Source: Acholeplasmatales bacterium
Lineage (GTDB): Bacteria; Bacillota_I; Bacilli_A; Acholeplasmatales; JAEDCM01
Reading direction: 5' to 3'
DNA: 64,000 nucleotides
Assembly (NCBI GenBank): GCA_017961685.1
Contig: JAGCWW010000084.1
Span: 8,450-72,449 of the forward strand
Below are positions 3,675 to 64,000 of this stretch, piece after piece. Every line of letters starts with the position of its first letter. Positions within the stretch are counted from its first letter, which is position 1. Both the position numbers and the translations under genes were made by a program. The notes below the pieces were generated by a model. That model saw nothing but the letters and a program-made list of their open reading frames with translations. It did not search any database and was not told where the DNA came from.

Positions 3675-4991
3675 ATGGACATTGATTTTGAAGGAAAAGG
3701 TGCTGTTAATGCACAACCTAATGGTGGACAGCAAGGAACTTCTGGTAATAACGGTAATCCTGCTAATCAGCCTGATACTACTCATTTAAATGGTAGCGAA
3801 ACTGTTGATATTAACGGAGATGATAAAAACAATAATGGTAATACAGGTGAAGGTGCTACTACTGATGATAATAATGGTGGTAGTAATGGAGAAGAAAATA
3901 AGTCCAATAACTCTTCTACGGGGGGTCTAGAGCCTGGTACTGAAATTGAATTTGATGGTATTATTTATACCGTTGATAATGCAGGAAATGTTGTAGATAA
4001 AGAAGGTAAACTTTTTAAAGAAGCTAAAGATGTAAAAGCATGGCTTGAAGAAAATAATGTTGATGATAATAACGAGAATGATACTTTGTCTATAGATTCT
4101 ATTCGTGAAGCTGTAGGTATTGACATTACTGATGAAAACGGGAAACCTGTAGAATTTACTAATGATGCTGCAGGTGTTAAAAGTTATATAGATTCTGTTA
4201 GAAATCTTCAAGCTGCTGAAATAGCACAAGGTGCTGTTAATAAATTGTTTGCAGATAATCCAGTACTTAAACAGTTTATTGATTATGTTGAAATTACTGG
4301 AAGTCCCAAAGGTTTTGGTGACATTCCCGATAGAAGTGGTATTCAGCTTGATAAAGATAATGAATCTCAGCTTGAAGCTATTGTAAGAATGGCAGCTAAA
4401 GAGTTTGGTAATAGGAGTGTGAGTGATTCTTATATCAAATATCTTAAAGAGTCTGGAGGTCTTTATGATGAAGCTAAAACTCAACTTGAAGCTTTAGTTG
4501 GTAAAGATAAGGCTTATCGTAAAGAAATAGAAAATCGTGCTAAAGCTGCTAGAGAACAAGAGGAACAAAGTGTTCGTAATTATTGGCAAAGCGTTAGTGA
4601 TGCTATAGCTAAAAAAGTTATTGGAGGTTATAAACTTCCTGATAGCTTTGTAAAAGAAATTAATGGTCAAAAGATTACTTATACTACAGAAGATTTCTTT
4701 AAATATCTTTCTGAGCCTGCTGTTAAAGACGAAGATGGTAATGTTTTGACTGGTTATCAAAGAGATTTAGCTAAATTAACTGACGAAGAAGCTTTAAATA
4801 AAGAGCTTCTTGATGCTTGGCTTACATTTACAGGCGGAAGTTATAAAGATTTGATTGACATGGCTATTAAAGAAGATGCTGTTCGCAAATTAGTTATTAA
4901 GTCTAAACAACAACGTTCTGCACATACTGTTAAGATTAATAAGCCAGAAGGTAGTAAAAAAGTAGATTTTAATAAGATTCTACTGAACTAA
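3675..4991 (+). CDS. head-module protein, possible scaffolding/decoration protein
   Basis: ATG at 3675; the track start at 3648 is a TTG. It has a G/N/D-rich low-complexity N-terminus followed by a helical K/E-rich body. It sits directly upstream of the MCP candidate and has strongly biased GGT/GCT/CGT/CTT codon use. Function is guessed from position only. Confidence 0.35.
   Translation: MDIDFEGKGAVNAQPNGGQQGTSGNNGNPANQPDTTHLNGSETVDINGDDKNNNGNTGEGATTDDNNGGSNGEENKSNNSSTGGLEPGTEIEFDGIIYTVDNAGNVVDKEGKLFKEAKDVKAWLEENNVDDNNENDTLSIDSIREAVGIDITDENGKPVEFTNDAAGVKSYIDSVRNLQAAEIAQGAVNKLFADNPVLKQFIDYVEITGSPKGFGDIPDRSGIQLDKDNESQLEAIVRMAAKEFGNRSVSDSYIKYLKESGGLYDEAKTQLEALVGKDKAYRKEIENRAKAAREQEEQSVRNYWQSVSDAIAKKVIGGYKLPDSFVKEINGQKITYTTEDFFKYLSEPAVKDEDGNVLTGYQRDLAKLTDEEALNKELLDAWLTFTGGSYKDLIDMAIKEDAVRKLVIKSKQQRSAHTVKINKPEGSKKVDFNKILLN
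3911..3925 (+). repeat. YnTACGn motif copy
   Basis: ctcttcTACGGGGGG, inside ORF 3675..4991 where it is read as S-S-T-G-G. Confidence 0.9.
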
Positions 4992-5020
4992 GATTTATTA
5001 ATTATTAAATTATTTATTTT

Positions 5021-6511
5021 ATGTACAAACTTAGAGAAGTAAGTCGTGGTAATTATGATGACCGTGGTTATTCAAATGAAGAAACTATTGCTCATCTTAT
5101 GCTTACACATCCTGAGGAAATTAATAACACCCTTACCTATACTTTTGGTATGGATGATGATAGGTTTCCTTTAACTTTCCTTACTGAGGGTCAAGGTTCT
5201 GCTGGTGTTGTTGATATTTCTACAGAGCAGTGGACTTGGAAGATTATGGGACGTATGAAGTTTAATGATTACGTTATTTGGTTTAATACAAGTAATACAA
5301 CTCCTGGTAAGGGTGGTGCTATGTTTGATGTTGAGTTTGCTACTCATTGGTTGATTGAGCAGTATGGTTTGATTGCTCCTGATAGTAGGACTCAAGTTCG
5401 TATTATGAAAGACCTTGGAGAAGGTGCTCATGGTGGTTATCTTTATCGTTTGAAGATTACTAGTCCTAATCCTAATGTTTATGTAGATCCTTCTATGCTT
5501 GCTAAGGGTAAGTATTGGAGTATGACTGCACCTACAATTAGTGCTTCTTACAGTAAGGGAAATCGTTCTAATGTTATGGGTCCTGGTAAGATGACTTCTC
5601 AGCTTGAGTATCATCGTTATTCTAAGGAAATTGCTGGTAACATTAGTAATACTATTGTAACTTACGAGTTTAAGACCACTGATGGTGGTACAACAAATCT
5701 TTGGATTAATGAGGAGATGCGTCAGCATAATATTAATATTCGTATTATGGATGAAGAGCGTCTTTGGCTTGCTGAATATAATCGTACTGAAAACGGTGAA
5801 GTAACTCTTGTTGACCCTGATAATGGTCAACCAATTCCTCATACTTCTGGTATGATGGAGATTTGTCGTGAGGCAAATTATGATACTTATGGTGAATATC
5901 TTACATTGAATAAGATTGAACGTACTATTGGTGATGTTTTGGATAAGGATACTGATACTGGTACTATGGAAGTTGTTCTTATGGCTGGTAAGGGCTTTAT
6001 GCAAGATTTTGACCAAGCTATTCGTAATGATGCTAAGTCTGAAGGTTTTGTTACACCTCTTGGTGACAAGATGATTGAAGATTTTGATGGAGGTCTTTCT
6101 TATGGTAAGTATTTCCGTCGTTATAAGACAGTAGATAATCATATTATTACTTTGAAGCATCTTTCTTTCCTTGATAAGGGTACTCTTGCAGACAATGATA
6201 AGGCTAATGGTAACGTACATCCTCGTACAGGTCTTCCAATGTCTTCACATCAGGCTTTCCTTATTGATATGAGTAAGTATAGTAATAAGGATGAAGGTTC
6301 TGTTCGTAATGTTCGTAAGGTTCGTCTGAAGGGTCAGATTTATCTTAGTGGCGTACTTAAAGGTCTTACTCCTATTCCAGCTTCTTGGGGCGGTGTTCCT
6401 CAGAATAGTCTTGGAACAGAGATTGATATGAGTCGTTATGAGATTAAGAATACTTACGGCTTGCAAGTAAACAATAACACAAAGATGTTCCAATTACAGT
6501 GTAAACTCTAA
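5021..6511 (+). CDS. major capsid protein (HK97-fold type) candidate
   Basis: 496-aa ORF in the portal-scaffold-coat position. It has the strongest high-expression codon bias in the window, and its size fits crAss-like MCPs. No search was possible. Confidence 0.55.
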   Translation: MYKLREVSRGNYDDRGYSNEETIAHLMLTHPEEINNTLTYTFGMDDDRFPLTFLTEGQGSAGVVDISTEQWTWKIMGRMKFNDYVIWFNTSNTTPGKGGAMFDVEFATHWLIEQYGLIAPDSRTQVRIMKDLGEGAHGGYLYRLKITSPNPNVYVDPSMLAKGKYWSMTAPTISASYSKGNRSNVMGPGKMTSQLEYHRYSKEIAGNISNTIVTYEFKTTDGGTTNLWINEEMRQHNINIRIMDEERLWLAEYNRTENGEVTLVDPDNGQPIPHTSGMMEICREANYDTYGEYLTLNKIERTIGDVLDKDTDTGTMEVVLMAGKGFMQDFDQAIRNDAKSEGFVTPLGDKMIEDFDGGLSYGKYFRRYKTVDNHIITLKHLSFLDKGTLADNDKANGNVHPRTGLPMSSHQAFLIDMSKYSNKDEGSVRNVRKVRLKGQIYLSGVLKGLTPIPASWGGVPQNSLGTEIDMSRYEIKNTYGLQVNNNTKMFQLQCKL

Positions 6512-6534
6512 TTATTAATTAAAATTATACGGAT

Positions 6535-9712: not shown

Positions 9713-9747
9713 AATCCCAACATCTCCTTTACGGGGGTGCTGGGATT
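9713..9747 (+). promoter_or_regulatory. 7-bp hairpin presenting the YnTACGn motif in its loop
   Basis: aatccca (9713-9719) pairs with tgggatt (9741-9747). The loop is acatctcctttacgggggtgc. It lies between the stop at 9702 and the ATG at 9760. Confidence 0.6.
9723..9737 (+). repeat. YnTACGn motif copy (intergenic)
   Basis: tctccttTACGGGGG, followed 7 nt later by ATTAAACTTAAT (9745-9756). Confidence 0.9.
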
Positions 9748-9759
9748 AAACTTAATACT

Positions 9760-10383
9760 ATGAATGATTTACAGACAATCAATGAGATTGTCAATGAAAG
9801 TGTTAGAAATTCTTCCTATGTAACTGTAATTATTTCTAGTTGTATTTTTATTATTTATACTATTATTGTAAGACTTATTGATTATTTTAAAGCTAAAAAT
9901 AAAAATAAAAGTCTTTATGAAATGGCAATAGCAATTAAAGAAAATACAGCTAATGTAATTAAACTTAATAGCATTTTAGATAAAACATTAAAAGATGCTG
10001 AGAAGAAAGAACTTCGTCAATGTGAAAGAGCTATTGATTTAAGTTTTAAGGCTTTTGGATATAGACTTGCTCAAGAGTGTTCTGCTGTTATAGCTTATAA
10101 TAACATTGATGATAATAAAGAATTAATAGTTGGCAATATAAATAAATTAGTTAGTGCCGAATATTATAAATTATATTCTACTCTTTCAACTTACGAAATA
10201 AATGAAATAAATGTTTCAAACAAACTTAAAGAAGAATGGATAAAAGAAGTAGCTGATAGTCTTATAGCTATTGTCTATGATGGACAAGACGCTATTAATA
10301 GAATAACTCAAATTAACAATAGACTTAACATCTATATTAATGAGTATTCTACTTTTATTAACAATAAAGTTTTTAACACATAA
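9760..10383 (+). CDS. hypothetical protein with N-terminal transmembrane helix
   Basis: 207-aa ORF with a hydrophobic segment VTVIISSCIFIIYTIIVRLI. Confidence 0.6.
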   Translation: MNDLQTINEIVNESVRNSSYVTVIISSCIFIIYTIIVRLIDYFKAKNKNKSLYEMAIAIKENTANVIKLNSILDKTLKDAEKKELRQCERAIDLSFKAFGYRLAQECSAVIAYNNIDDNKELIVGNINKLVSAEYYKLYSTLSTYEINEINVSNKLKEEWIKEVADSLIAIVYDGQDAINRITQINNRLNIYINEYSTFINNKVFNT

Positions 10384-10388: not shown

Positions 10389-10625
10389 ATGTTGTATGAT
10401 AAAGCCTTAAAACAAGCAATGCTTGATGTTCTTAATAATAGAGCGTCAAGCATTGCTAATTGTATTCAAGCATTGTTTGATGAAGGTTATATACCTAATA
10501 AAAATAAATTTACTATTCTTGATTGGTCTTCTATTCTTATAGATGCTTATGAAAACATAGATGTTTTGTCAAAAGAACAACACCAAAAACTTGATATTAT
10601 TTTTAATAGAGTATTAAAACTATGA
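10389..10625 (+). CDS. hypothetical protein
   Basis: 78-aa ATG ORF whose stop overlaps the next start (ATGA). Confidence 0.55.
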   Translation: MLYDKALKQAMLDVLNNRASSIANCIQALFDEGYIPNKNKFTILDWSSILIDAYENIDVLSKEQHQKLDIIFNRVLKL

Positions 10626-11380
10626 GTACAAATCTTCAACAAATAGAACCTGAATATATATATGTAACTATACCTGCTGAGTATATATGTGTATATCATC
10701 GTATTCTTGCAATGCTTGCAGATTATGGTGAAGATATGCTTAAAGATTGTAAAGCATCGTGTAAAGATAGGAATGTAAATGTTATTGAATGTTTTAATAT
10801 GTTTAATGCAGCTGTTGCTGCAAGAAAATTAAGTAAAGATAAACTTGCTGAAACTCTTATTAAATATATTAAAGCTAAAATAAATCAAATTTATAAAGGA
10901 CATGATAATTCTACATCTTTTGTATTTCCTATTGATGAAAATGGACAAATTAAAGCTTTTGTATCATGTGGAGAAAGACCTCGTTTTGAAATAAATCCTG
11001 ATGATGGTGCTTTATATGAACATAAGTTTAATAATGGATTTGATGAGCATTTTAAACTTGGTCCAGAAGATGAATCTACCGATGGAGAAGATGTAACACC
11101 CCCCGTAGAAGAAATTGGTTTAGTAATAGATTTTACTCCTGAATATCATCTTGTTGATGGCGAATATAAGCCTTGTGGTGATTTAGTTGTTAGATATAAT
11201 GGAGAATATATTGATCCTAATACTTGTATTATTCAATATTATTTTGATGACATTGTAGTATTAAGATTTAATGATGTTACTGGTTTAACAACAGGAACTC
11301 ATAACTTTAAAGTTGTTGTTACTTATAATAATGAAACTAAAATAGTAAATAAAGATTTATATTATGCAGCTATCAGTTGA
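10622..11380 (+). CDS. hypothetical tail-fibre-module protein
   Basis: 252-aa ORF translationally coupled to its neighbours. Confidence 0.6.
   Translation: MSTNLQQIEPEYIYVTIPAEYICVYHRILAMLADYGEDMLKDCKASCKDRNVNVIECFNMFNAAVAARKLSKDKLAETLIKYIKAKINQIYKGHDNSTSFVFPIDENGQIKAFVSCGERPRFEINPDDGALYEHKFNNGFDEHFKLGPEDESTDGEDVTPPVEEIGLVIDFTPEYHLVDGEYKPCGDLVVRYNGEYIDPNTCIIQYYFDDIVVLRFNDVTGLTTGTHNFKVVVTYNNETKIVNKDLYYAAIS
11099..11113 (-). repeat. YnTACGn motif copy
   Basis: CCCCCCGTAgaagaa, inside ORF 10622..11380 where it is read as T-P-P-V-E-E. Confidence 0.9.
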
Positions 11381-16357: not shown

Positions 16358-16678
16358 ATGGAAATTATTAATAATATTATAGAAACTACAATAAATAGTT
16401 TTGATTTTGTTTATTGTTTAATTGTCAATATTCTTACATATACTGTAATTAAAGTTATTGATGAACTTAATGGTAATAAGCCTATTAGTGTTTGGACTAA
16501 ACGTATAGTGTTATTAATCTGCATCCTCTTTACGGGGGGTCTATATTATACTATAGGCAAAGATTCAGAACTTCTTATAAATAGTGCTATTCTTACTCCT
16601 GTTAGTTGGTCTTGGATATTTAAACCTTTATGTATTAAATTTAATATTGACTATAAACAATTAAAAGAATTAGATTAA
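16358..16678 (+). CDS. small membrane protein (holin-like topology)
   Basis: 106 aa with 2-3 hydrophobic helices (FVYCLIVNILTYTVIKVI, IVLLICILFTGGLYYTI). Confidence 0.5.
   Translation: MEIINNIIETTINSFDFVYCLIVNILTYTVIKVIDELNGNKPISVWTKRIVLLICILFTGGLYYTIGKDSELLINSAILTPVSWSWIFKPLCIKFNIDYKQLKELD
16524..16539 (+). repeat. YnTACGn motif copy
   Basis: tcctcttTACGGGGGG, inside ORF 16358..16678 where it is read as L-F-T-G-G. Confidence 0.9.
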
Positions 16679-20821: not shown

Positions 20822-20834
20822 CCCCCGTAAAGGA
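20822..20834 (-). repeat. YnTACGn motif copy (intergenic, left member of inverted pair)
   Basis: CCCCCGTAaagga. Confidence 0.9.
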
Positions 20835-20922: not shown

Positions 20923-20936
20923 CCTCCTTACGGGGG
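20923..20936 (+). repeat. YnTACGn motif copy (intergenic, right member of inverted pair)
   Basis: cctcctTACGGGGG, followed 7 nt later by ATTAAACTTAAT (20944-20955). Confidence 0.9.
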
Positions 20937-20977
20937 TTTTATAATTAAACTTAATCCTTATAATTTAATATATAAAG

Positions 20978-21664
20978 ATGGCTAGCATTTCTCAAATAGT
21001 TTCTGAATTTGCTCATAGTGTTGGACAACCTAACAATAAAGCACTTAGAGAAAATATTAAATCTTTAATTATTCACACTCGTAATGAAATTATACGAAGA
21101 AGTTATGAGAATCATGGATATATAGATAAAGGTTTAGTTCAAAGATTTAAAGTTAGTTTAATTACAGTAAATGACGGAGAAGTTATATTGCCTGAAGGTA
21201 TAGAAGATACAGACATTGATAAAATTCTTCGTACAGAACAACAAGTTCCAAGACCTGTTAGATTAACTAACAATCTTCCTTTTGATAGAGTTAGTACTGT
21301 TGGGTTTAAAACTAATTTAGAAATTCCATTTATAAAAGAAACTACTGCAAGATTTAGAACTTTTGTTCCTGGTTTAAAAGGACTTCCTTGTTATGATTAT
21401 ATTAACGGGTTTATTTATGTATTTCCAGCAGATAATAGACCTCTTTCTTTTGGTAAACTAGTTATAGAATCTGCTTTTGAAAATCCTACTCCTATAGAAA
21501 TCGCTAATGGTACTATATCAGAGTGGGATTCTTTTATGGATACTAATGAATGGCTTTTATCTGAAGATATGATTGGTCAAATTAAAGATATTATTTATAA
21601 AAGAGATTTACTTAATCAATATAGAGAAACAAATGAAATACCTGCGACTGTAAAATTTAATTAA
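20978..21664 (+). CDS. tail/adaptor-module structural protein, function unknown
   Basis: 228-aa ATG ORF, the first gene after the promoter and leader. Confidence 0.6.
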   Translation: MASISQIVSEFAHSVGQPNNKALRENIKSLIIHTRNEIIRRSYENHGYIDKGLVQRFKVSLITVNDGEVILPEGIEDTDIDKILRTEQQVPRPVRLTNNLPFDRVSTVGFKTNLEIPFIKETTARFRTFVPGLKGLPCYDYINGFIYVFPADNRPLSFGKLVIESAFENPTPIEIANGTISEWDSFMDTNEWLLSEDMIGQIKDIIYKRDLLNQYRETNEIPATVKFN

Positions 21665-45700: not shown

Positions 45701-48700
45701 CATTTATGATGCAAGACGGTGTTCGTAGAATTGTTGATGCTTATAATTCTACTAATTCTATTTATCAAGAAAGTAGAGGAAATTATATCAACAAAGCTAT
45801 TCGTGATATAGCTAGAGAATTAGGAATGAATATTTCTGGAGTTTCCAATATATTAGATGTTATATCTGCTCTACAAAAAAGATTTGGTGCTGATTTTGCT
45901 AAAATATTTGGAAAAGATGCAGAAATAACTCTTAATGATGATAAGATTGCTCAAACTGCTATAGATGGAGAACAACTTCAAGATGAAATATTAACCCCCC
46001 GTAGGGGAAAGGATAAACTTCTTTTTGATTTAGGAGTTATACTTCAATATTCTAAACTTAGTCATTTTGGAAATTCTATTACTGCTCTTACTAGAGTTTG
46101 TAATCCTGATAAGTTTGGTGCAAAACAAACAATCTTTGCAACAAATAAAATCTTTGATGACATAAAAGATATACTTAATAGTGATAATCCTATTCCTCTT
46201 GAAGTTAAAAGAACAAATTTCCTTGAAGCTATTTATCCTGATGTAGATAAAACTCTTGATGATTTTATTACAGCTCCTAGAAAAGAATCTGCTTATCCTT
46301 CTCTTTATAATTTCTTAAAATATGCTACTGCTACAAGTATTAAAATTAATAGAAGTTTGTTTACTACACAATCTCCTGAATTTATTAATGCTGTTCGTAG
46401 CATAGAAAGACTTTTAAGTGATAATGGTAAACTTACAGAGAAACAATATAAAGACATTGAGAAATACATCATTGGTCATCTTTATAATACTTGTCAAAGT
46501 ATTATGCGTCCTCTTACTTTCGCGGTCAATGGGGATATTGGGTTTGTACCTATTGCGTTAGAGAATGAAAATAGTCTTTCTCAGCAACAAATGTTTGATG
46601 AAGAACGTCGTCGTATATTTGGATATGGTGCTTCTCCAGAAATAAAACTTGAAGTTGCTAATGTACATGAGCCTACTCAAGATGAAGTTAATGCTTTTGC
46701 AAAGTTAACTCCTGCTCAAAAAGTTGCATACATTCAAGGACATTTTTCTAGTGCCGGTGTATTTAATTATATTCGTACAAATTTATTTAATGAGCGTGCA
46801 GCTAGAAGAACTGGAGCTAGTGGTCAAACTATTGAATTTATTGATACATTAGTAAATGTTGAAGATGTATATCAAGCTTTTGTTAATGCCTTTTCTAGTA
46901 CTAATCCTTTGGTAGCTTTAACTGCTTATGATGTTATTAAATATGCATTTGCTGTTGAAGGTTATAAACTTAAGAGAAATGGTGTTAGCAAAATGATTCC
47001 AAATAGTGTTCTTTATAATGACTTCGGAATATATGGAACAGGAATTGTTCAAGAATTAGATGGAAAAGTTCGTAATATTGGTAAAATATTGGCTGATGAT
47101 ATAGAAAAGATTCAAGAAGATTATATTAGAGGTCATAATATGTATCAAATTCCATCTATTAAAGTTCAAAAACCTAAAGGTAAAGGATATGAACTTGTTT
47201 CAAGAAGCAATGGTATTATTCAACTCGGAAAAGATGACGATAGTATTGCTATAGCTGAAAAGTATAGGATTGTTTATAGACGAGGACAAAACGAAGCTCC
47301 TACGGCAAATGCTTATGTTAGATTAACATTCGGCAAAAGAACTGCTCTGTATAAAATAGATGAAAGAAATAATTCATATTACTTATATCCTCTTAATAAT
47401 CTTGAAGAGAATGAACATGGAGAATTTAGTTCTAATGTAGGAAATAATGTATATCCAAAAGAAGATTATTATCTTAGAATTATTAATGAGTATGAATCTC
47501 AATTCTATGATTTTGATGCTAGTAAATTTAGAGAAATAGCAGATAAATATGATGTTGAAGAATTTAAAGCACCAAAAGAAGAAAAAGTTAAAATCAGTCA
47601 TGCTGCTAAAGAATTTAGTCTTGAACATCCAGCAGATAATATGATAGGTGCTGTTGATAAACTTAAGAAAGATGTACAAAGACATTTTGGCGATGAAGAA
47701 CTTAATAATCCTCTATATATTATAAATGCAGGTTTACATAATGCTATAACTCATCCTGGTTATGCTAATGGTACTACTAAATTATTTACAATTAACAAAG
47801 GAACTGCTAATGAAAGAGTTGTAAGACTTAATGTTTATGGTTTAGAGTATAGTATTCTTGAAAGACTTGCAAATAGGTATCTTGATAAAAATACAGGTAA
47901 ACAAATTAGTAAAGGCGATGAAAAATATACTAATATAATAAAATTCTTTAGAGATAATGGTATTGTTAATATTTCTAAAAATCATCCAACTGTTTTTGTA
48001 GTAAGACCTGCTGCTATTGAAGATGATGGTTTACGTAGGTCTAGTCTTGTTGAAACTGGTACTACTGCTTATAAAGCTATAAATCGTAGATTATCATCTG
48101 TTGAAGATGAAGCTGCAATTAACGCTAATCAAAGACTTAGAGATAAAGGTATTACAACTGATAAGAATTCTGTTGCTAATCATATTGATGAAGTAATTAG
48201 AACAACTGCTGAATATGTTGCAACTGTAACAGAAAAAACTGTTAATGGCCTTAAGTATTTTGCTGAAGACCCAAATGGTAATGGGTATTTATCTGTAACA
48301 GACCCTGGTGTAATTGATTTAATTAAAAACGATCCTGCTCTTATAAGAAAGTTCCTAAAGATTATTCTTGATGCTGAGGCTATTGTAAGTAATTTTAAGA
48401 CTATAAATGAACTTGATATTAAATCTCAAGACCCTGAACTTCAAAGATATCTTAATAAGATTAAAGAGTGTGTCAATGATTTACAAAATAATGCTTTAAT
48501 TCGTGGTGCTAAAGAATTATTTGCAAATAATTATCTTGCAAAGCTAAGTAGTGACCCTCTTATTCAACAAGATATTCTTAACATTCTTGATGGTTATCAT
48601 TCTACAAATTCATTTACTGCTTGGGTTAATGACTTACAAGAAACAACTAATCCGTTTATTCAAGTTTTAAGTAAACAAGTAATCGCTGATATTAGAGCTA

Positions 48701-51700
48701 AAGAATTTGAAGCTGTTCGTAGAGTTCGTGCTTGGCAATCATTTGTAAAAGGAATTAAAGCTAAAGCTGCTGCAGCAGGTAAAACTATAAATTGGGATAA
48801 TATCATTGATGAAGACGGTAGATTTATTCAAGAATATACTCAATCTTTAGTAGATGATATGAATCAAATGCGTGATGCTATTGCATCAGCTAAAGCTACT
48901 TATGGAGAAGGAAGTATTGAACACCTTGAAGCTCAACTTAAATACAATAAGTGGAAACTTGAACATATCAATCAAGAACTTGAAGATGACTATTATCGTA
49001 AGAGAATAGAACTTGATGAAGCTATGCTTCATGGTGTAAGAACTTCTTACATAGATGAAAGAACTGGAATGGTTGTTGAAAGTGAAGAACTTAGTGGAGG
49101 TTATCCAATAGTATTCACTGAATATAAGAAACTTGAAGCTAGACGTAGAGATATTTTAAGTCATGTAGTAAATGGAGTTCTTGATGATTATTGGAAACAA
49201 CAATTAGATGAAGTTAATAGTAAAATAAATGATTTAACTAATCAACTTTATCATGATCCTGTTACTGGTGATCTTATTAGTCGTACAGAATATGATAAAT
49301 ATTTAAATCCTGTTTCTGGTACCGAAGAAGAAAAACGACAAAAACTTCTATATTCTGCTGCTAGTCAAAGAGCTATCGCTAAATACATAAAAGATGTAAG
49401 AGAACTTAATACTGAATATTATGGTTATGATGTAGAATTTGGTTTTGAAGAGGAACTTCAGAGAAATCTTCATATAGTTGAAAGCTATGAGAAGCGTGAT
49501 GCTAATGGAAACATTAGTACTCCTATGAACTTACTTATGGAAAATGATGAGTATGTTCGTGCTAAAGAATGGCTTGCTTCTAACGCTAGATTTGTTGTAT
49601 CTCTTGCTGATGATTCAGAACTTGCTAGAAAACTTAATGAGGCTTATAATGTATTAAGAAGAAGTGATAATACTAAAGAAAATTCTTATGGTCTTGTTAT
49701 AGCTAGAAAAGCTAAAGACAGAAATGCTTATGATAATCGTGGTGTAATAGACGGTACAAAGTTTACAGATGACGATATAAAAGCTATCAAAGCTGACCAA
49801 CAAGCAGCATATAGTTTCAGAGAAGATGCTCCATTCTCGGATAAGGGACTTATAAGCAATGCTTCTCCTACGGGGGAGATATATACATCTGAGTTCTACA
49901 AAGGTATGACTTCTAATGGTACTTCTAATCCAGAATGGATTAAAAAAGTACATGAAATAAATGAACTTCTTGCTCCATACTATGATAATGGTACTAAAAC
50001 TATTAGATTTGACCTTATACCAAACACTGACGAGGGCAGAGCTGTTTATACTAAACTTGAACAACTTTATAAGGATTTAGCCGAAATTAAGAAAACAGTT
50101 GATGGAGATAATGGTAAAGAAATTGCACAATTTATTGAAAAGAACGTTGATTTTAACATCGATAAAGATGAATTTAATAAACAAAAAAGTCTTGCTGAAG
50201 AAAAAGGTAAACTATATTATAGTTTCTGGGTTAAAGCTAATATGGAAATAGTTGATGATGAAGCTGTTCCAAATCATTATATTTATGGTTACACTACACC
50301 TAAAGCAGAAATTAAAGAAAAGTATTTAGATAAGAAAAAGACTGAAGCTCTTCAACTTATTAATAAAATTTATACTACAGTACCTACGGAATACTATTAT
50401 CAAAAAGTTCAAGAAGTTAAACAACAAGGCAAAGAAGCTTATGATAAATGGTATCATGAAAATCATATTTATAATCCATATACTCATACTTATGAACCTC
50501 TTCGTTGTTGGACTAAAAGAACATTCAGAGATACTTCTTCTGCTGTAGGTAAATGGGAAGCTGCAATGAGTAAAAGAACTAGAAAAGCAAAACAAGAATA
50601 TATTAATCCTAATTATAAACCTGAAGTAGGTAATGCTCTTAATTATAAGAAAGGTAGTGGATATGATAATTCTAGAATAAACGATGCAAATGAATTTGAA
50701 AATGAACTTAAACTAGAAATGCAAAAACTTCTTTCTGACCTTGTTAAAACTAAATTTGGAAGAAGATTTATTGATAAAGGTTATCTTCCTGTTAGACGTA
50801 AAGCAGAAGAGCATGATGCTAAGTTTTGGGGAAAAGAACTTCTTAAAACTATCGGTTGGGTTGAAGGACATTCTGGTGAAGAACCTTTCTATGAGGATTT
50901 AGATTATGCTAGAGATAAAACTATTTCAATGCCTATGCTTTCTCTTATTGGTCAAAAAACTCTTGAAAGTTTAAATATAAAAGAACCAAAACGAGAAGAA
51001 TATAATACTGACGCTGAGTATGCAGCTGCTGTAGATAAGTATAATAAAGATGTTGCAGAACTTAAAGAAAATAATAAGCAAGCACATCAGGATGCTATTG
51101 ATAGAAATTGGGAAGAAGTTATAAAAGATTTTATTCTTCAAGCTTCTCATTTCAATGCAGTTCAAGATAACAAATATATGCTATTCTATGGAAAGTCTAT
51201 GCTTGAGAATATGGGTGTTTATCAAAGAAGATATGGTTTCTTTGGAGATTATAAGAAAGACTATATAAATTCTGATGATACTACAACTGAATATATCAAG
51301 CGTAAAGATGAAAATCTTCTTAAACAATATGAAAATTGGATTCGTAGAATAGTTTATGACCAGTGGAAAGAGTCTAATGGAATGTTTACTAAATGGGCTT
51401 CTAGACTTCAAAGTATAACATCTGCTCAATACATGATGATGAATATTAGAGGTGGTATTGCTAATGTTACTTTAGGTGAAACTAACATTCTTGCTGAAGC
51501 TTTTGCTAAAGAATACTTTGGAACAAAAGATTGGCTTGCAGGTAAATCATATTGGATGGCTGGTATTCCAAGTTATTTTGCTAATGCACATAAACCAATT
51601 TCTACTAGTGTTGCAGACGCTATTATTAAATTCTTTAATGTAGTTGACTTTGATGAACTTACTGGTAAATCTAGAATTATAGAGAATCCTGTTAGTGAAG

Positions 51701-53115
51701 GAATGAGGAGATTTACAGGTGCTATGTATAGTCCTCAAAATATTGGTGAAAACTTCATGCAAAATGGTGCTATGTTTAGTATGATGATGAGTCATCGTCT
51801 ATATGAAATAGAAGACCCTGAAACTCATGAAAAGACTATTGTCTTTAAGAATGAACATGAAGCTATGCGGGATGCAGAAATTCAAGCTCTTAGAGATGTT
51901 ATTAAAGATTCCCCCTTAGAGGAAAGATTTAATGATTTCATTAAAAATATTAAAGAAGATGCCAATAAGATGAAAGATTATGCTTGGCGAAGAAAAGATT
52001 TTATAACTCAATTTGCTAAACAATATCTTACTAAAGCACAACAACAAGAATATGTTACTAAACGTAAGGCTCGTCAAGTTGAATATAAACAAGAGTTTTA
52101 TAATGATGAAGCTCATCCTAGATTAATTGACCAATTTGCTCTTGGTGATGACCAACAATTAAGTTTCAAGAAAGATAGCAAACTTGCAGAATATGATATT
52201 CCTAATCAAAATGGTGAACCTAGTGAAGCTTATAAACTTCTTGCAAACTTTAGAGGAAGAGTTATTTCTGTAAACAAAAAGATACATGGTATTTATGATA
52301 GACTTGGTCAAGCACAACTTGAAAAACTATGGTATGGTAGTTTAGTTATGCAATATCATAAACACATGTATACAGGAATACTTAAACGTTGGAGAAGAGA
52401 AGGTTCTTATAATGAAGAAAGAGGTACTATTGAAAAAGGTTGTTATATAGCTCTTATGGACTTCCTTGCAACTCCTTGGCAACAATATAAAGAAAAACTT
52501 GGTATGAATGATGCTCAAGTTGAAACTATGGAAGGAACTCAAAATCTTCTTGGAGAAATAGTTGATTTTGTTACAAACATTCAACTTAATTGGAATCTTC
52601 TTCCTGAACATGAAAGAGCTAATATTCGTAGATGTCTTGGTGATGTATGTGGTGTTCTAAGCGCATTATTTATGGCTATTGCACTTCGTGCTATGATGGA
52701 TGACGATGATGAAGATAGCATCTTATTCAATCTAGGTCTTTATGAAGCTGATAGACTTGCATCTGAAAGTTTCCAATTTAATCCTCTTGGTATGTATAGT
52801 GAAGCAAAGAAACTTTGGAGTACTCCTATTGCTGCTCAAAGCGGATTACAAGATATTATACAAAGTTGTGGACTTCTGTCTAAAATGATTATTGAAGGAG
52901 AAGATTTTGACCCTTATTATCATAGTGGACGATTTGCTGGAGAACATAAGTTAAGTGTATATGTTCAACGTCGTATTCCAATTTGGAGAGGCATTAAGAC
53001 TGGATTTATTGATATTGTAGATAGTAATTCATATTACAAAATGGGAGATAATATGCTTGGCATACTTCCTGTAAATCATTGGTCTAATCTTATTAAAGGT
53101 GTAGAGGATAAATAA
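39721..53115 (+). CDS. giant virion-packaged RNA polymerase candidate (crAss-like two-barrel RNAP fusion protein)
   Basis: 4464-aa uninterrupted ORF. GYRIPTEGKQS...TGSDFDIDSVYG carries the aspartate triad DFDID at 44737-44751 (aa 1673-1677), which resembles the NADFDGD metal-binding motif of double-psi-beta-barrel RNAPs. It is the last gene of the virion block, as in crAss-like phages. Confidence 0.55.
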   Translation: MDCIFSVDISKSKALQALKDYCGENSEQFLTYINSVVKEQAADGSLVPSAHFVEWWKQRFKNEPNFNAGTGSQMRDRIIRYFKEIKGDVESTYRDGATAQILSTYGYTSPSSRDFCKRITANYVLDAYKKNRYILIKDPQVYKDIQDAIKEQGAKTFYFNIAFDKLREELAIRILKAQGISNPSDDDIDNILDIIEDGNRKYVEDALGGKNISVENSNLIAVVYEFQTSPASFVEEVSRDSRLYKIFNKDDEFDDNNQPDAEGENNPENEADEDNEDFLNTTISMYDHTGTYTSAMMHVDGGIRAYLSSLKKLNSGVGLDKNQPDLDLNNPLGIADTMNTDECVTILYHYGNYDNVDSMIESIKAIANNIPGFAAFHQLAKDLEADSDIAYQFYTTFGKTIISKVETTVKGSITRTRISNNRSNKLEALGFEFMNSVKTTAIDTDLDFATDELANLRDRLKTTKQEILKSLDNKFRKAAIAELAKQLRRYYPTISDYAVENYINNHKENGITVDVDKNFGNLITILENTIKYSEGTKIEYENRQLDINEAYNHNRSLERKQLETNAYVPASAFIDLAPLYAKPYITKEQKGTALELAKALVDYSLVRVENNSRTIHGNQSSDVINNSYITNILKTLQNDTSLANYGKYRANSHQYDFSRIMIEHVEDGVVVNKGLFRYNDDGELVQTEYAKDLLKINLFNGASNLDTDTNVAYNQMSQGDYIGTGFINFFNAEDKTTANYFMRVPSDAPRNFSIKAPRYSIAGLFSIANQSEVTAAKSAIRKKVTEKGLVEDAIDWGVNDKPFDIYYSDQAIRHMTSDAGEVSVKLPDFVKGNKNYKEGEEITVKFKYKSDNAEDNRDVYLIRGTVENGRIVNGTFLGVIGNNFSSELSDAFDRYTDRTLERQGIIKYAINRNHSLFKQFRNAFKQELLDAAVGINKFFVTNDDGLVQRYSENEAKMLGVEEKAIKWKDGVSKNGREVSGAYENYHHKKGKIVEKKEGKETLVGNVFHSDRFVIFDKNDNEVRNYGEELLEEVFSLLYGGDDNTYLHFTKNADGSVKRVNLTDTQQEAVDNKIEEFIVNYIEQGFNRLSNVEGSLKGTELTHNTAAEFLLNYHMMYINFNDLFEGDTKFYGTSRDFLKRAKEVQGSGVPYGLVEYNANLGADKTEVTRSILTGTVFANGYKVKQYNKFSAVTVVNTIMTNESAIKTLRNKLIKDCKLSEEDADGLLAGYTQGTKVNDAQSYITFDEWIRRIAARGQLMRYKPLIDKILNEEELNAEELSEFVQVQKNFYYDQYYDKNAGVLVPRQIKNAEFVLIPQLIKGTELEAVAAIMNKYDIDQLNTVETTKAGKTDILEIFDAKTGEVKQDIIDEVNGKGISSFGKKATAASELFSYNYLYTQQETPQHVNTENKAGIQIMKKILDNSTPDSKLWETKQRFFRLYSANIRDSFQNLMQELNLEVDENGNLVLEEDADGNKTIKGLNVELFCQRLKEECMRLGLDSNMLDYVTLDATRMAENGFNTIMPNYMSMVSQKLESIAQSLFNSRITRQKLPGFHAAQITNVGFKALASSKEQVSYSKELKYHQDENGKYVPYVEIMLPASAFGFKRTNEDETLKTKEELLKELQDAGLDEIIGYRIPTEGKQSVCRMKVVGFIDDAYGSTIVVPNDWVTQTGSDFDIDSVYGIQFETYIDKEGHIRKTEKIDDLEILYKSYVLKHLTKEERIKAFEDAKAGEAVINEIKNRNKDEDTNYFNREKFIAELKQYSTEALFGVLEDIAEEKGLKSFEEYSKEDIDELNSRASRNNGILQCMLDILGSNEALEENLSRSNFDDITNAIIKNMSAKAKLERENRSAYNFLDQAAYQEDAMSGARLKGYSVTRDTFCSICNTVRPTISKQHQVKVVYSTDMISYNKAVERFGKENVEKQGDDKIVITHDRLGWTNDNKNVVGKILTAYSSQTTAHILDAIKEGAVPNVNELTFAVFKIFPDLGIDYDTAVAFMMQDGVRRIVDAYNSTNSIYQESRGNYINKAIRDIARELGMNISGVSNILDVISALQKRFGADFAKIFGKDAEITLNDDKIAQTAIDGEQLQDEILTPRRGKDKLLFDLGVILQYSKLSHFGNSITALTRVCNPDKFGAKQTIFATNKIFDDIKDILNSDNPIPLEVKRTNFLEAIYPDVDKTLDDFITAPRKESAYPSLYNFLKYATATSIKINRSLFTTQSPEFINAVRSIERLLSDNGKLTEKQYKDIEKYIIGHLYNTCQSIMRPLTFAVNGDIGFVPIALENENSLSQQQMFDEERRRIFGYGASPEIKLEVANVHEPTQDEVNAFAKLTPAQKVAYIQGHFSSAGVFNYIRTNLFNERAARRTGASGQTIEFIDTLVNVEDVYQAFVNAFSSTNPLVALTAYDVIKYAFAVEGYKLKRNGVSKMIPNSVLYNDFGIYGTGIVQELDGKVRNIGKILADDIEKIQEDYIRGHNMYQIPSIKVQKPKGKGYELVSRSNGIIQLGKDDDSIAIAEKYRIVYRRGQNEAPTANAYVRLTFGKRTALYKIDERNNSYYLYPLNNLEENEHGEFSSNVGNNVYPKEDYYLRIINEYESQFYDFDASKFREIADKYDVEEFKAPKEEKVKISHAAKEFSLEHPADNMIGAVDKLKKDVQRHFGDEELNNPLYIINAGLHNAITHPGYANGTTKLFTINKGTANERVVRLNVYGLEYSILERLANRYLDKNTGKQISKGDEKYTNIIKFFRDNGIVNISKNHPTVFVVRPAAIEDDGLRRSSLVETGTTAYKAINRRLSSVEDEAAINANQRLRDKGITTDKNSVANHIDEVIRTTAEYVATVTEKTVNGLKYFAEDPNGNGYLSVTDPGVIDLIKNDPALIRKFLKIILDAEAIVSNFKTINELDIKSQDPELQRYLNKIKECVNDLQNNALIRGAKELFANNYLAKLSSDPLIQQDILNILDGYHSTNSFTAWVNDLQETTNPFIQVLSKQVIADIRAKEFEAVRRVRAWQSFVKGIKAKAAAAGKTINWDNIIDEDGRFIQEYTQSLVDDMNQMRDAIASAKATYGEGSIEHLEAQLKYNKWKLEHINQELEDDYYRKRIELDEAMLHGVRTSYIDERTGMVVESEELSGGYPIVFTEYKKLEARRRDILSHVVNGVLDDYWKQQLDEVNSKINDLTNQLYHDPVTGDLISRTEYDKYLNPVSGTEEEKRQKLLYSAASQRAIAKYIKDVRELNTEYYGYDVEFGFEEELQRNLHIVESYEKRDANGNISTPMNLLMENDEYVRAKEWLASNARFVVSLADDSELARKLNEAYNVLRRSDNTKENSYGLVIARKAKDRNAYDNRGVIDGTKFTDDDIKAIKADQQAAYSFREDAPFSDKGLISNASPTGEIYTSEFYKGMTSNGTSNPEWIKKVHEINELLAPYYDNGTKTIRFDLIPNTDEGRAVYTKLEQLYKDLAEIKKTVDGDNGKEIAQFIEKNVDFNIDKDEFNKQKSLAEEKGKLYYSFWVKANMEIVDDEAVPNHYIYGYTTPKAEIKEKYLDKKKTEALQLINKIYTTVPTEYYYQKVQEVKQQGKEAYDKWYHENHIYNPYTHTYEPLRCWTKRTFRDTSSAVGKWEAAMSKRTRKAKQEYINPNYKPEVGNALNYKKGSGYDNSRINDANEFENELKLEMQKLLSDLVKTKFGRRFIDKGYLPVRRKAEEHDAKFWGKELLKTIGWVEGHSGEEPFYEDLDYARDKTISMPMLSLIGQKTLESLNIKEPKREEYNTDAEYAAAVDKYNKDVAELKENNKQAHQDAIDRNWEEVIKDFILQASHFNAVQDNKYMLFYGKSMLENMGVYQRRYGFFGDYKKDYINSDDTTTEYIKRKDENLLKQYENWIRRIVYDQWKESNGMFTKWASRLQSITSAQYMMMNIRGGIANVTLGETNILAEAFAKEYFGTKDWLAGKSYWMAGIPSYFANAHKPISTSVADAIIKFFNVVDFDELTGKSRIIENPVSEGMRRFTGAMYSPQNIGENFMQNGAMFSMMMSHRLYEIEDPETHEKTIVFKNEHEAMRDAEIQALRDVIKDSPLEERFNDFIKNIKEDANKMKDYAWRRKDFITQFAKQYLTKAQQQEYVTKRKARQVEYKQEFYNDEAHPRLIDQFALGDDQQLSFKKDSKLAEYDIPNQNGEPSEAYKLLANFRGRVISVNKKIHGIYDRLGQAQLEKLWYGSLVMQYHKHMYTGILKRWRREGSYNEERGTIEKGCYIALMDFLATPWQQYKEKLGMNDAQVETMEGTQNLLGEIVDFVTNIQLNWNLLPEHERANIRRCLGDVCGVLSALFMAIALRAMMDDDDEDSILFNLGLYEADRLASESFQFNPLGMYSEAKKLWSTPIAAQSGLQDIIQSCGLLSKMIIEGEDFDPYYHSGRFAGEHKLSVYVQRRIPIWRGIKTGFIDIVDSNSYYKMGDNMLGILPVNHWSNLIKGVEDK
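40337..40346 (+). repeat. decayed YnTACGn motif copy
   Basis: gctttaGGGGGt. It lacks the C of TACG and has a weak pyrimidine tract. Confidence 0.35.
42821..42841 (+). repeat. YnTACGn motif copy
   Basis: tttctctcctcTACGGGGGGG (7 G), read as L-L-Y-G-G-D. Confidence 0.9.
45995..46013 (-). repeat. YnTACGn motif copy
   Basis: CCCCCCGTAggggaaagga, read as T-P-R-R-G-K. Confidence 0.9.
49862..49876 (+). repeat. YnTACGn motif copy
   Basis: cttctccTACGGGGG, read as S-P-T-G-E. Confidence 0.9.
51911..51926 (-). repeat. decayed YnTACGn motif copy
   Basis: CCCCCTTAgaggaaag, with G changed to T in the GTA. Confidence 0.45.
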
Positions 53116-55710: not shown

Positions 55711-55727
55711 TATCTCCTTTACGGGGG
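55711..55727 (+). repeat. YnTACGn motif copy (intergenic, left member of inverted pair)
   Basis: tatctccttTACGGGGG. Confidence 0.9.
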
Positions 55728-55778: not shown

Positions 55779-55796
55779 CCCCCGTAAGAGGAGATA
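55779..55796 (-). repeat. YnTACGn motif copy (intergenic, right member of inverted pair)
   Basis: CCCCCGTAagaggagata. Together with 55711-55727 it forms a 17-bp inverted repeat with one bulge. Confidence 0.9.
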
Positions 55797-59333: not shown

Positions 59334-59335
59334 AA

Positions 59336-59925: not shown

Positions 59926-60279
59926 CTATAAATCTAATTTATATACATCACCATCATCAAAATGTTCAATATGATTAATAGTTATATTAATATCTTTATC
60001 TAGTGAACTTAAATATGTTTCATCCCATATCCATTTAAGACTTATTTTAATTCTGCCATAAGTATCATATTTTGTTTTATATGTTACAGCAGCATCTTGT
60101 TTATTATCAAGCATGGCTATATAATAGTCAAATTCTTGAGTTTCTGTATTAAATCTTTTACCTATTGTATAATAAAGTCTGAATTTAATTTCTCTAGATA
60201 ATAATTCATTACGTTTGATATTTGTCCAAGTAGTATTTTTATCTATTTTAGGAATAGTATCATAAGCACTAAGATTCAT
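59926..60279 (-). CDS. hypothetical protein
   Basis: 117-aa ATG ORF. Confidence 0.6.
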   Translation of the reverse strand: MNLSAYDTIPKIDKNTTWTNIKRNELLSREIKFRLYYTIGKRFNTETQEFDYYIAMLDNKQDAAVTYKTKYDTYGRIKISLKWIWDETYLSSLDKDINITINHIEHFDDGDVYKLDL

Positions 60280-60887: not shown

Positions 60888-60889
60888 TG

Positions 60890-62089: not shown

Positions 62090-62091
62090 AA

Positions 62092-62577
62092 TTATTTAAT
62101 ATTAAATTTAAGTAAATTAAGTTTAGCAACTTTATTAGCAAGTTTAATCTCTTTAGCAGTAGGTTCAATATTATTCTTCTCCCTACGGGGGGTTGATTGT
62201 TTTGTAGTTCCAGACTTACTTTTAGCTTTTGGTTTACATGCATCATAATCTACAGGAGGAGTAGTCTTTTCAAATTCTAAATTAGCCTTGTGTTGAGTAA
62301 GAAGATTATTAAACCATGTATCCCTATCAGATTCATCTACATAAGTATTGATTGTATAAACTATTTCTGTGATAGCCCTAACATAAATATAACTTATTGT
62401 TTGAATTGGTCTTAAACCATCTTCCCAAACTTTACTTGCATTTAATGAAGCAATACTTAAATGAAGAAATTTATCTAATCCTAGTCTGCTAATTTCATGA
62501 GGAATATAATTAATCATAAAATTATCTGGTTCTTCGATATACCTACTAAGACATTTTAATTGTTCTGGTATAGTCAT
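62092..62577 (-). CDS. hypothetical protein
   Basis: 161-aa ATG ORF with a basic C-terminal tail. Confidence 0.6.
   Translation of the reverse strand: MTIPEQLKCLSRYIEEPDNFMINYIPHEISRLGLDKFLHLSIASLNASKVWEDGLRPIQTISYIYVRAITEIVYTINTYVDESDRDTWFNNLLTQHKANLEFEKTTPPVDYDACKPKAKSKSGTTKQSTPRREKNNIEPTAKEIKLANKVAKLNLLKFNIK
62174..62192 (+). repeat. YnTACGn motif copy
   Basis: ttcttctcccTACGGGGGG, antisense to ORF 62092..62577 (codons S-T-P-R-R-E-K). Confidence 0.9.
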
Positions 62578-63055
62578 AGTTTATTTTTAAAAAAATATGT
62601 TTAAAAAGTACAATTCTTTCAGGCTTATCTATACTAGCATAAGCGTATTGTGCAAGTTCAGCAGAATTAAAGGTTTCTGTCCAACGAATTCTATTGCTAG
62701 GAGATTTACATTGATGCGTTTTAAAATTATAATCAGAAGGTATAGAAATTCCAGAAGAACTAAGATAATTTAGAAAATCAAAGTCTTCTATTATATTATA
62801 ATCACTGCTATCAGTATTAAAATCTACTACACCATAACAATAAACATTAATAGGTTCTATTGTAAAACTCATATCACCTCTTTCAAGATTTAATGTTTTA
62901 TTATTATCCAATTCGTGTTCTTCCTCTTCAGTAATATATGTCATAAAAGTAGCAATAGTAGTTTTATTAGGCGCTAATCTTTTATTCAACATATAGTAAT
63001 CCTTCGTAATTGGCATAGGAATAATCGTCATTGGTTTCATACTTGATTCTAACAT
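62546..63055 (-). CDS. hypothetical protein
   Basis: 169-aa ORF. It overlaps the primase 3' end, so the true start may be the internal ATG at 62992. Confidence 0.5.
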   Translation of the reverse strand: MLESSMKPMTIIPMPITKDYYMLNKRLAPNKTTIATFMTYITEEEEHELDNNKTLNLERGDMSFTIEPINVYCYGVVDFNTDSSDYNIIEDFDFLNYLSSSGISIPSDYNFKTHQCKSPSNRIRWTETFNSAELAQYAYASIDKPERIVLFKHIFLKINYDYTRTIKMS

Positions 63056-64000
63056 AAATTAAAGTTTCTTTAATAAATTGATTAATAACATCTATTGAAT
63101 ATATATCGTGTAAGTCTGCAAAGTCTTTAGCTTTATAATTATATAAACCAAATTCTCCTCTAGTTATAAAAAGATATGGTATATTGTAAGTTTCTTGTAA
63201 GTACTTAGCACCATGTCTACCAGCTTTATCAAAATCTAATAAACTTAATATTATACCACTAGGCGTAAGTTTATTGAGTAAATAATCATATTCTTGTTGT
63301 GTAAGTTTATAACTTTCACTAGGAAGGTTTACAACTCCTATATTAAGTTTATTTCCAGCTCCCCCGTAAAGAAGATGGTTAGCTAAATGTGAACCTATAC
63401 TAAGTCTATCTTTGCTGCTTTTAGTAATAAGTATATAATCATAATTATCAAGTTCTAAATTTAATAAACCTTCTATTACATTACAATTAGTAATAAATTT
63501 TTGTTCTCGTTTATTTCTATCTCTTAAAGGAAAATAAAGTTTAATAAGATAAATTCCAGCTCTATTTTGACCAAGCATATAAGCATAACAAGGATCTTTA
63601 ATATTATATTTATATACAGGTTCACTATTAATACCTCTATTTACATAATATTGGTCAACAGCAAAAACAAAGTGAGTATTAAGGTATTGAAGGTTAATAC
63701 CCCAATGTTCCCATATATTTTTATCTTGTTTATTCCAACTTCTTGGAAGAAATTCAATAATAGCTTTATGCTTTTGACCTTTTCTAAGTGCGTCTTGTAT
63801 TATAGAATCTATATTTTCATCTATTTCTTTTCCATCTATTATATTACTAAAAGTTTCAGCAATATGTTTAAGTATGAAATAAAAATCTTGTTTATTATTA
63901 GGTTCTATTTTTCTATTATATACAAGGCTTAATACATGTGCTACAACATCATACACATCACCAAAAAAGCCAAAACCTCCAAAATCTCTAACTTTTAATC
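62982..64000 (-). CDS. DnaG-like primase (Toprim domain), 5' end beyond the window
   Basis: The frame stays open to nt 64000; the track start at 63956 is a GTG. Toprim-like ILITKSSKDRL and LDFDKAGRHG (DxD) are present. Confidence 0.5.
   Translation of the reverse strand, partial: LKVRDFGGFGFFGDVYDVVAHVLSLVYNRKIEPNNKQDFYFILKHIAETFSNIIDGKEIDENIDSIIQDALRKGQKHKAIIEFLPRSWNKQDKNIWEHWGINLQYLNTHFVFAVDQYYVNRGINSEPVYKYNIKDPCYAYMLGQNRAGIYLIKLYFPLRDRNKREQKFITNCNVIEGLLNLELDNYDYILITKSSKDRLSIGSHLANHLLYGGAGNKLNIGVVNLPSESYKLTQQEYDYLLNKLTPSGIILSLLDFDKAGRHGAKYLQETYNIPYLFITRGEFGLYNYKAKDFADLHDIYSIDVINQFIKETLIYVRIKYETNDDYSYANYEGLLYVE
63361..63375 (-). repeat. YnTACGn motif copy
   Basis: CCCCCGTAaagaaga. It is sense to the primase ORF, where it is read as L-L-Y-G-G-A. 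Confidence 0.9.

Follow-up and report, generated by a model that had tools for sequence, protein, structure and literature searches.

An evenly spaced, polar pyrimidine-tract/TACG/G-run motif in Intestiviridae phage genomes and its possible role as a strand-start site

A 64,000-nucleotide stretch of DNA (contig JAGCWW010000084.1, positions 8,450 to 72,449; hereafter the window) carries dispersed copies of a short motif, a pyrimidine tract followed by TACG and a run of G, on both strands and inside genes as well as between them, and the question arises of what this motif does and what reads it. The window was identified as a segment of a crAss-like phage genome with a G+C content of 29.8%. The window encodes a portal, a major capsid protein (MCP) and a tail ring protein, the minus strand carries the genes of a dUTPase, a DUF932 protein, a Gam-like protein, ThyX, an HNH endonuclease, an ATP-dependent ligase and a DNA primase, and the two largest open reading frames (ORFs; 32800-39702 and 39721-53115) code for giant proteins of 2300 and 4464 amino acids. 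Because the MCP is 83% identical to those of Wotdevirus murinus ctcc615 and cr271_1 and 62% identical to that of the prototypic crAssphage (p-crAssphage), the window phage is, judged by this protein, a member of the family Intestiviridae; a near-identical DNA match for 20 kb of the window was not found among phage records. The gene content of these phages includes a DnaG-family primase, RecT, a PD-(D/E)XK exonuclease, an SNF2 ATPase, IHF-like proteins and a Gam-like nuclease inhibitor. No viruses of the human gut are more abundant than the crAss-like phages, and their replication and DNA processing are barely understood.

The window contains 20 runs of at least five G or C, 18 of which lie in the motif context. 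TACGGGGG was found 18 times, 11 times on the plus and 7 times on the minus strand, where 0.06 copies are expected from dinucleotide shuffles and 0.02 from a second-order Markov model. A preliminary description of the window, made from the letters alone, had given the same numbers of runs and copies on each strand, the same division into 13 copies in ORFs and 5 intergenic copies and the same four tight inverted pairs; its estimate of about 0.2 expected copies was too generous, and the enrichment over both null models is stronger than first estimated. The six bases 5' of TACG were pyrimidines in 18 of 18 copies and the seventh in 17 of 18, so the tract is purely pyrimidine as described before, but its length, when delimited by a purine, was 5-12 nt instead of 6-10 nt; the form of the motif can be given as Y6-12 TACG5-7. 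Directly before UACG, 10 copies have C and 8 have U. Three further sequences had been suspected to be decayed copies. This holds for the one at 38628-38646 on the minus strand (cctcTACGAGGG), which differs by one G-to-A change, whereas ctttcctcTAAGGGGG at 51911 on the minus strand is a variant with a TAA loop that is the normal form in the phage crAss002, and the weakest of the three, gctttaGGGGG at 40342, is doubtful.

The motif was also found in related Crassvirales. In 80 IMG/VR loci around the MCP gene, 165 G-runs of at least five were preceded by YTAC and every other four-nucleotide context occurred at most six times. The complete genomes of p-crAssphage, crAss002 and ctcc615 carry 32, 31 and 19 copies with the longer consensus sequences TCCATCCTCYACGGGGRGT, CTCCTYTAYGGGGGAA and ayYTTCTACGGGGG(A/T)GST, respectively, and fewer than one copy is expected in each under a Markov model. 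The form of the motif differs between lineages: half of the copies of p-crAssphage carry GGGGAGT, TAC is replaced by TAT, TAA or ACA in relatives, and two close relatives have replaced the G-run version altogether, by TTCTACAGGGGAG in locus L024 (8897, 14362 and 19684) and by CCTTTTACAGGGCGGCT in locus L064 (3117, 8315, 14550, 18205 and 18246). At one orthologous site, the sequence is TACGGGGGGGCTAG, TACAGGGCGGCTCT or TTCTACGGGGGAGCTAG according to lineage. Copies with ACA in place of ACG could be taken for decay, but whole genomes use ACA as their dialect. Common to all dialects is a core of a pyrimidine tract, then T or C, then A, one or two bases and GGG. Dialects differ even between phages of one host genus, and copies keep their positions even where capsid identity between phages is as low as 62-75%. 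Since the dialects shift in concert at orthologous sites, the copies within a genome change together, which implies a putative phage reader that co-evolves with its sites. Another relative, L020, was almost free of the motif across 21 kb.

Most copies in the window lie within ORFs, where they use codons that are otherwise rare: ACG makes up 2.9% of the threonine codons, GGG 3.0% of the glycine codons and CCC 5% of the proline codons. In the gene upstream of the MCP gene, an N-terminal region of low complexity adjoins a conserved domain, and the copy at 3917 lies at their junction. At the orthologous site, tcT-ACG-GGG is kept in about 45 of 58 distinct relatives, and the variation of the encoded residues is confined to all-pyrimidine codons (S/P/F/L), so that the amino acids drift and the pyrimidines stay. 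In two relatives, the motif is inverted at almost the same place. Relatives without the plus copy at -1100 have a plus copy 0.5-1.3 kb off or an inverted copy in place; this turnover with compensation indicates that the presence of the motif is probably under selection. The view that the constraint inside genes acts on the nucleotides and not on the protein, already put forward in the preliminary description together with the use of rare codons, is thus supported by the sequence comparison. The accompanying statement that copies mostly fall into linkers was looked at for one site and is true at 3917, but the copy at 16531 lies in the hydrophobic stretch CILFTGGL.

The orientation of the copies was compared with the direction of transcription in four genomes (counted by hand from the site lists). 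Copies were found in early and in late regions, 57 in sense and 43 in antisense; thus, orientation is independent of transcription, which argues against a role in mRNA or as promoter. The copies are divided between plus and minus strand as 11/7 in the window, 14/18 in p-crAssphage and 17/14 in crAss002. Along the genome, the orientation alternates in 15 of 18 cases in the window (permutation p=0.004), in 21 of 31 in p-crAssphage (p=0.04) and in 26 of 30 in crAss002 (p=5e-5); in ctcc615, alternation was not significant.

Spacing was even when each strand was taken by itself. The coefficient of variation (CV) of same-strand spacing was 0.22-0.58 in the eight strand sets, six of which were significantly unlike uniform placement, with mean gaps of mostly 5.4-7.5 kb and a minimum of approximately 2-4 kb. 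Because this regularity exceeds that of a null model with a 1.9-kb exclusion zone (Fisher combined p=4e-8), same-strand gaps are bounded above as well as below. With both orientations combined, the CV rose to 0.67-0.72, compared to 0.22-0.5 per strand. In 45 related loci (823 kb), which share kinship, so that the counts are not independent events, adjacent copies less than 1 kb apart had the same orientation once and opposite orientations 30 times, and 48 of 63 same-orientation gaps measured 4-8 kb. From the spacing per strand and these pair orientations it follows that the strands are served separately, at a fixed density, and that the reader tells the orientations apart, as expected for a strand-tracking reader.

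Opposite-strand copies in these phages are often no more than 300 bp apart and are enriched at distances of 17-250 bp; the window has four such pairs within 250 bp where 0.7 are expected. In relatives, the arms of 10 of 13 tight pairs are arranged as (-,+), 5'-C5GTAR…YTACG5-3'. Tight back-to-back pairs lie 270-550 bp upstream of both repL genes of p-crAssphage, the arms of one pair being 17 bp apart (L081, 22895-22944 and 28087-28173; L082, 45755-45865, corresponding to BK010471 95755-95865), and one of the repL-side pairs coincides with a predicted origin (PMC10983915). Even spacing per strand, alternating orientation, lineage dialects and conserved positions had all been missed by the preliminary description.

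What could the motif be read for? We tentatively propose a polar cis-acting signal of Intestiviridae that a phage enzyme, co-evolving with it, recognises on one strand at a time and that would most likely serve as a start site for priming. Priming, one of several candidate roles listed before, ranks first among the readings weighed here but is no more than a possibility; its main rival, somewhat less probable still, is site-specific nicking. The reader would then be the replication machinery, and the phage DnaG-family primase/helicase would enter or start at the motif. One site per approximately 5-7 kb would be needed on each strand for either fork direction, and forks of both directions would require sites on both strands. 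A cost of every site, together with a penalty for long gaps, would lead to even spacing, and the close back-to-back pairs on opposite strands would be bidirectional start modules. The motif strand would be the template: the invariant A would be the uncopied 3' nucleotide, synthesis would begin opposite the last pyrimidine, copying of the pyrimidine tract would yield a primer made only of purines, and docking would take place at the G-rich 3' flank. DnaG primases start at trinucleotides such as CTA, TTA and CTG, and the conserved 5'-Y-T/C-A-3' step of the motif resembles these by analogy.

Several points weigh against priming. Its basis is sequence statistics. To our knowledge, DnaG primases need a trinucleotide only, and we know of no phage that depends on lagging-strand sites of 14-25 nt. 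The ssi, sso and G4-type priming signals are large hairpins of single-stranded DNA (ssDNA), whereas copies of the motif are unfolded as ssDNA. Okazaki fragments of 5-7 kb would be long, and with the (-,+) geometry, the two primed strands would initially run towards each other. On the minus strand of ctcc615, only seven copies were found, with one gap of 27 kb, and the coincidence with repL and the origin amounts to two pairs in one genome. Further, the Y-tract/TACG/G-run motif is absent from the Steigviridae phage crAss001, and no comparable motif was found in the first 50 kb of phi14:2, although both phages have a primase. In crAss001 (MH675552 1-100000; L085+L086), another sequence, CTTCTGGAG, is present in 27 exact copies on both strands without sense bias; its orientation alternates in 19 of 26 cases (p=0.003), and copies on the minus strand are regularly spaced (CV 0.46). 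Since these 8-mers are only about fourfold enriched under a Markov-2 model, CTTCTGGAG may or may not be an analogous system, and with none in phi14:2, an order-wide motif is not established.

The known priming signals differ from the motif in further respects. The ssi and sso signals, G4-type signals and ssiA/ssiB of RSF1010 are orientation-specific and act on one strand, with which the regular spacing of the motif per strand and the independence of the two strands would be consistent, and RSF1010 has its ssi pair on opposite strands at the origin, like the motif pairs. These signals are, however, folded hairpins of 40-150 nt with one or two per replicon, whereas the motif is approximately 15-25 nt long, unfolded and present in 20-30 copies. 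Ordinary primase sites (GTC-type in T7; CTG/CTA for DnaG) comprise 3-5 nt and, unlike the motif, are not specially conserved. A bolder form of the priming hypothesis, which we consider doubtful, is a strand-start code of about 30 dedicated polar sites, each strand having one per 5-7 kb; new strands would begin solely or preferentially at these sites, with all-purine primers, and the pairs would be bidirectional origins. If true, lagging-strand or re-start synthesis would for the first time be seen under the control of long, specific sites that evolution maintains through protein-coding genes.

The nearest competitor of priming, though itself unlikely, is that the motif strand is cut during replication or in packaged DNA by a phage nickase, for example one of the HNH endonucleases, similar to T5, phiKMV and tf except that both strands would be nicked. 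Strand-displacement synthesis or recombination could then use the 3'-OH ends left at the nicks. A long, asymmetric and lineage-specific site is what a nicking or homing-type endonuclease would recognise, genes encoding an HNH endonuclease and a ligase are present, and spacing per strand suits a strand-specific cut. The known nick consensus sequences (CGACxxxxxCCTA/CTCCGG in phiKMV; TACT/RTGMC in tf, 14 sites in 46 kb) are similar in size and contain TAC (PMC3517423). In addition, the sites of T5, phiKMV and tf are, like the motif, dispersed and asymmetric, with a consensus of 9-19 nt approximately every 3 kb in lytic phages and independent of genes, and they share the TAC core with it (PMC3517423). 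But the nicks of all three phages are on one strand (PMC3517423), whereas the motif uses both strands equally and often in tight opposite-strand pairs, and on this point the analogy to T5 and phiKMV drawn in the preliminary description fails. Cutting both arms of pairs that are 17-250 bp apart would give staggered double-strand breaks, and even spacing has no known reason under nicking. Even spacing and dialects are features of the motif that are not reported for T5, phiKMV and tf; nicks, on the other hand, are the feature of the known system. Among the 80 ends of 40 related metagenomic contigs, a weak test of cutting, the motif was found at two compared to 1.2 expected.

Less probable than nicking is a polar signal of the Chi or FtsK-orienting polar sequence (KOPS) kind, at which a strand-tracking helicase-nuclease or translocase changes its activity when it meets an oriented site. 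Such a site would stop degradation or load a recombinase, and sites in both orientations would protect or repair the genome after a break anywhere. The motif is G-rich and polar, is present in both orientations at a density of one per about 5 kb, similar to that of Chi in E. coli, and is evenly spaced per orientation; furthermore, the phages encode RecT, the PD-(D/E)XK exonuclease and the SNF2 ATPase. However, with 14-25 nt it is far longer than known Chi or KOPS sites, the phages carry a Gam-like nuclease inhibitor, a phage RecBCD- or AddAB-type enzyme is not among the annotations, and phages of the same host genus differ in dialect. It is also not the Chi of the host: 739 kb of chromosomal DNA from Bacteroidales contained four copies of TACGGGGG compared to approximately 16 expected, in a sample retrieved around 16S genes and thus biased to the neighbourhood of rRNA operons. 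A host genome-scanning system is therefore unlikely as reader, and a host Chi-like or uptake-type signal was rejected on these counts. Lineage dialects that co-evolve with their reader are known from uptake signal sequences (USS) and DNA uptake sequences (DUS). Like the motif, Chi, KOPS and USS/DUS are short, over-represented polar or recognition motifs that occur genome-wide, are tolerated at permissive positions in ORFs and often form inverted pairs between genes. Yet Chi, KOPS and USS/DUS belong to cellular chromosomes and host machines, whereas the motif is not over-represented in DNA of the host order, is longer, is evenly spaced per strand and shows no replication-linked skew, its orientations alternating throughout the genome.

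Improbable to a further degree is an RNA element, in which the pyrimidine tract and the G-run would form a hairpin that acts in transcripts as stabiliser, processing site, terminator or pause signal. In four genomes, the motif strand folds as RNA into a hairpin of 5-7 G-C and G.U pairs with -5.7 to -6.9 kcal/mol, compared to approximately -3 (standard deviation 2) for composition-matched shuffles and -2.2 to -3.7 kcal/mol for the complement, and this good fold is specific to the motif strand. The tolerance of either pyrimidine suits such pairing, and some intergenic copies lie in sense orientation between genes and within larger hairpins. But the energy of the fold is largely automatic from a Y-tract beside a G-run, 43% of the copies are antisense to the sole annotated direction of transcription, spacing is set by the DNA strand and not by the gene, and no Rfam family was matched in a scan of the window. 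Nor is the structure conserved: the loop varies (TAC, TAT, TAA, ACA), relatives having UAUG, UAAG and ACAG in place of a C(UNCG)G/YNMG loop, GGGGAGT in p-crAssphage would put a C:A mismatch into the putative stem, and GGGCGGCT in L064 would break it as well. As ssDNA, 12 copies gave 0 to -2.7 kcal/mol with z near 0, hence no stable hairpin. The C(UACG)G tetraloop mini-hairpin suggested earlier for RNA or ssDNA is therefore not supported as the conserved feature. The motif resembles helix 14 of 16S rRNA, CUCC(UACG)GGAG, the target of primer 341F (CCTACGGGNGGCWGCAG); this likeness is probably a coincidence of hairpin-like composition.

Equally improbable are duplex-DNA sites for an architectural or packaging protein, such as a phage IHF/HU-like protein, that organises or condenses the genome. 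The copies are numerous, dispersed and conserved, IHF-like proteins are encoded and dimers could bind the inverted pairs, but the sites are regular only within one orientation (CV 0.67-0.72 combined vs 0.22-0.5), opposite sites come as close as 17-74 bp, and a duplex readout that accepts either pyrimidine yet excludes purines at 6-7 positions would be unusual. Least probable of all is a selfish or drive micro-repeat without function for the phage, spread by gene conversion or a mobile mechanism like repetitive extragenic palindromic (REP) elements, REPINs or miniature inverted-repeat transposable elements. Concerted evolution of the copies within genomes, inverted doublets reminiscent of REPINs and one locus at which the motif is present, absent or inverted among relatives would fit. 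However, positions are kept across phages with 62-75% capsid identity, most copies lie inside ORFs that remain intact (13 of 18 in the window), the unit is not palindromic, a transposase or RAYT is not among the annotations of the four genomes, and even spacing with an upper bound, together with compensated turnover, points to selection for presence.

Other candidates can be dismissed briefly. A promoter of the phage RNA polymerase does not fit copies that are mostly intragenic and nearly half antisense; the crAss-like phage RNA polymerase is unusual, prefers ssDNA and has no known promoter, and the paper describing it found early transcripts without a common motif and host-type promoters for middle and late genes. 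Promoters of the T7 group are similar to the motif in having a consensus of about 20 nt, approximately 17 copies per genome and a co-evolving phage-encoded reader, but they lie upstream of genes in sense direction. Inverton repeats were rejected because only 4 tight pairs exist among 19 sites (18 canonical copies and the TAA variant at 51911), and inversion would destroy the reading frame at the two tight pairs inside ORFs; a recombinase was not found among the scanned genes of the window. Poxvirus-type topoisomerase IB sites (YCCTT) were rejected since many copies lack CCTT, and no topoisomerase IB was found among 26 window ORFs scanned, the two largest being left out.

By its properties, the motif can be grouped broadly with polar signals that are dispersed through genomes. 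The literature search did not reveal a description of it, including in a detailed genomic study of the prototypic crAssphage, in line with the earlier remark that no described element has such a sequence. What appears to be new is the combination of both strands, even spacing per strand, tight inverted pairs, dialects and placement through ORFs. Because a signal of 15-25 nt is kept against codon preference in essential genes, evenly spaced and in concert within lineages, it appears to mark a core cis-acting step of phage DNA handling that is new to the literature. For experiments, it offers about 30 exact coordinates per genome, and the co-variation of dialect and protein is a handle for finding the reader protein. 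Moreover, the motif constrains engineering and recoding of these phages and is a simple sequence signature by which Intestiviridae can be recognised and sub-typed in metagenomes.

The copies in the window are distributed as follows. ctcttcTACGGGGGG (3911-3925, plus strand) is the copy in the gene upstream of the MCP gene, where it is read in sense as SSTGG; most relatives have an orthologous copy. tctccttTACGGGGG (9723-9737, plus) is intergenic, 23 nt before the ATG at 9760, and its orthologue is located approximately +4.4 kb from the MCP start in many relatives. Between the stop codon and the next ATG, this copy is nested within an inverted repeat, AATCCCA…TGGGATT (9713-9747), that looks like an intergenic hairpin. 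The copy at 11099-11114 (minus) is antisense in ORF 10622-11380 and reads TPPVEE, and that at 16524-16539 (plus) is sense in the small ORF 16358-16678 and reads ILFTGGL. Three (-,+) pairs follow: the first is intergenic, with its left arm at 20822-20834 (minus) and its right arm at 20923-20936 (plus), 42 nt before the ATG at 20978; the second lies in ORF 27754-29661, with an antisense left arm at 28193-28208 (minus) and a sense right arm at 28401-28414 (plus); the third is found in the ORF of 2300 amino acids, again with an antisense left arm (36230-36246, minus) and a sense right arm (36325-36344, plus). The latter ORF has another sense copy at 33374-33388 (plus), and the decayed copy at 38628-38646 lies within the longest minus-strand gap. 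In the ORF of 4464 amino acids, a copy with seven G at 42820-42841 (plus) and one at 49862-49876 (plus) are sense and one at 45995-46013 (minus) is antisense; the variant copy tctttcctcTAAGGGGG at 51911-51927 (minus), with the TAA loop of crAss002, restores the alternation of plus and minus. The fourth tight pair, of (+,-) geometry, is intergenic, with the left arm at 55713-55727 (plus) and the right arm at 55779-55794 (minus), and its arms are mutually complementary. The last two copies are located at 62174-62192 (plus), antisense in ORF 62092-62577 between the ligase and primase genes, and at 63361-63375 (minus), sense inside the DNA primase gene (62982-63956).

The primase ORF (62982-63956, minus strand) has a GTG start and matched the phage primase profile only from profile position 96 on; the N-terminal, presumably zinc-binding part seems to lie in another frame or past the end of the window. 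The roughly 350 nt at 3297-3647, upstream of ORF 3648-4991, contain no ORF of at least 80 amino acids, and the same gap is annotated in relatives; the listed TTG start of ORF 3648-4991 is probably not the real one. Finally, a 12-mer, ATTAAACTTAAT, occurs in three exact copies in the window (9745-9756, 9958-9969 and 20944-20955) and, with one mismatch allowed, in 15 compared to 4.7 expected. Two of the exact copies follow intergenic motif copies at a distance of 7 nt and lie directly upstream of the start codons at 9760 and 20978, and ATTAAACTTAAT may belong to a promoter or leader.

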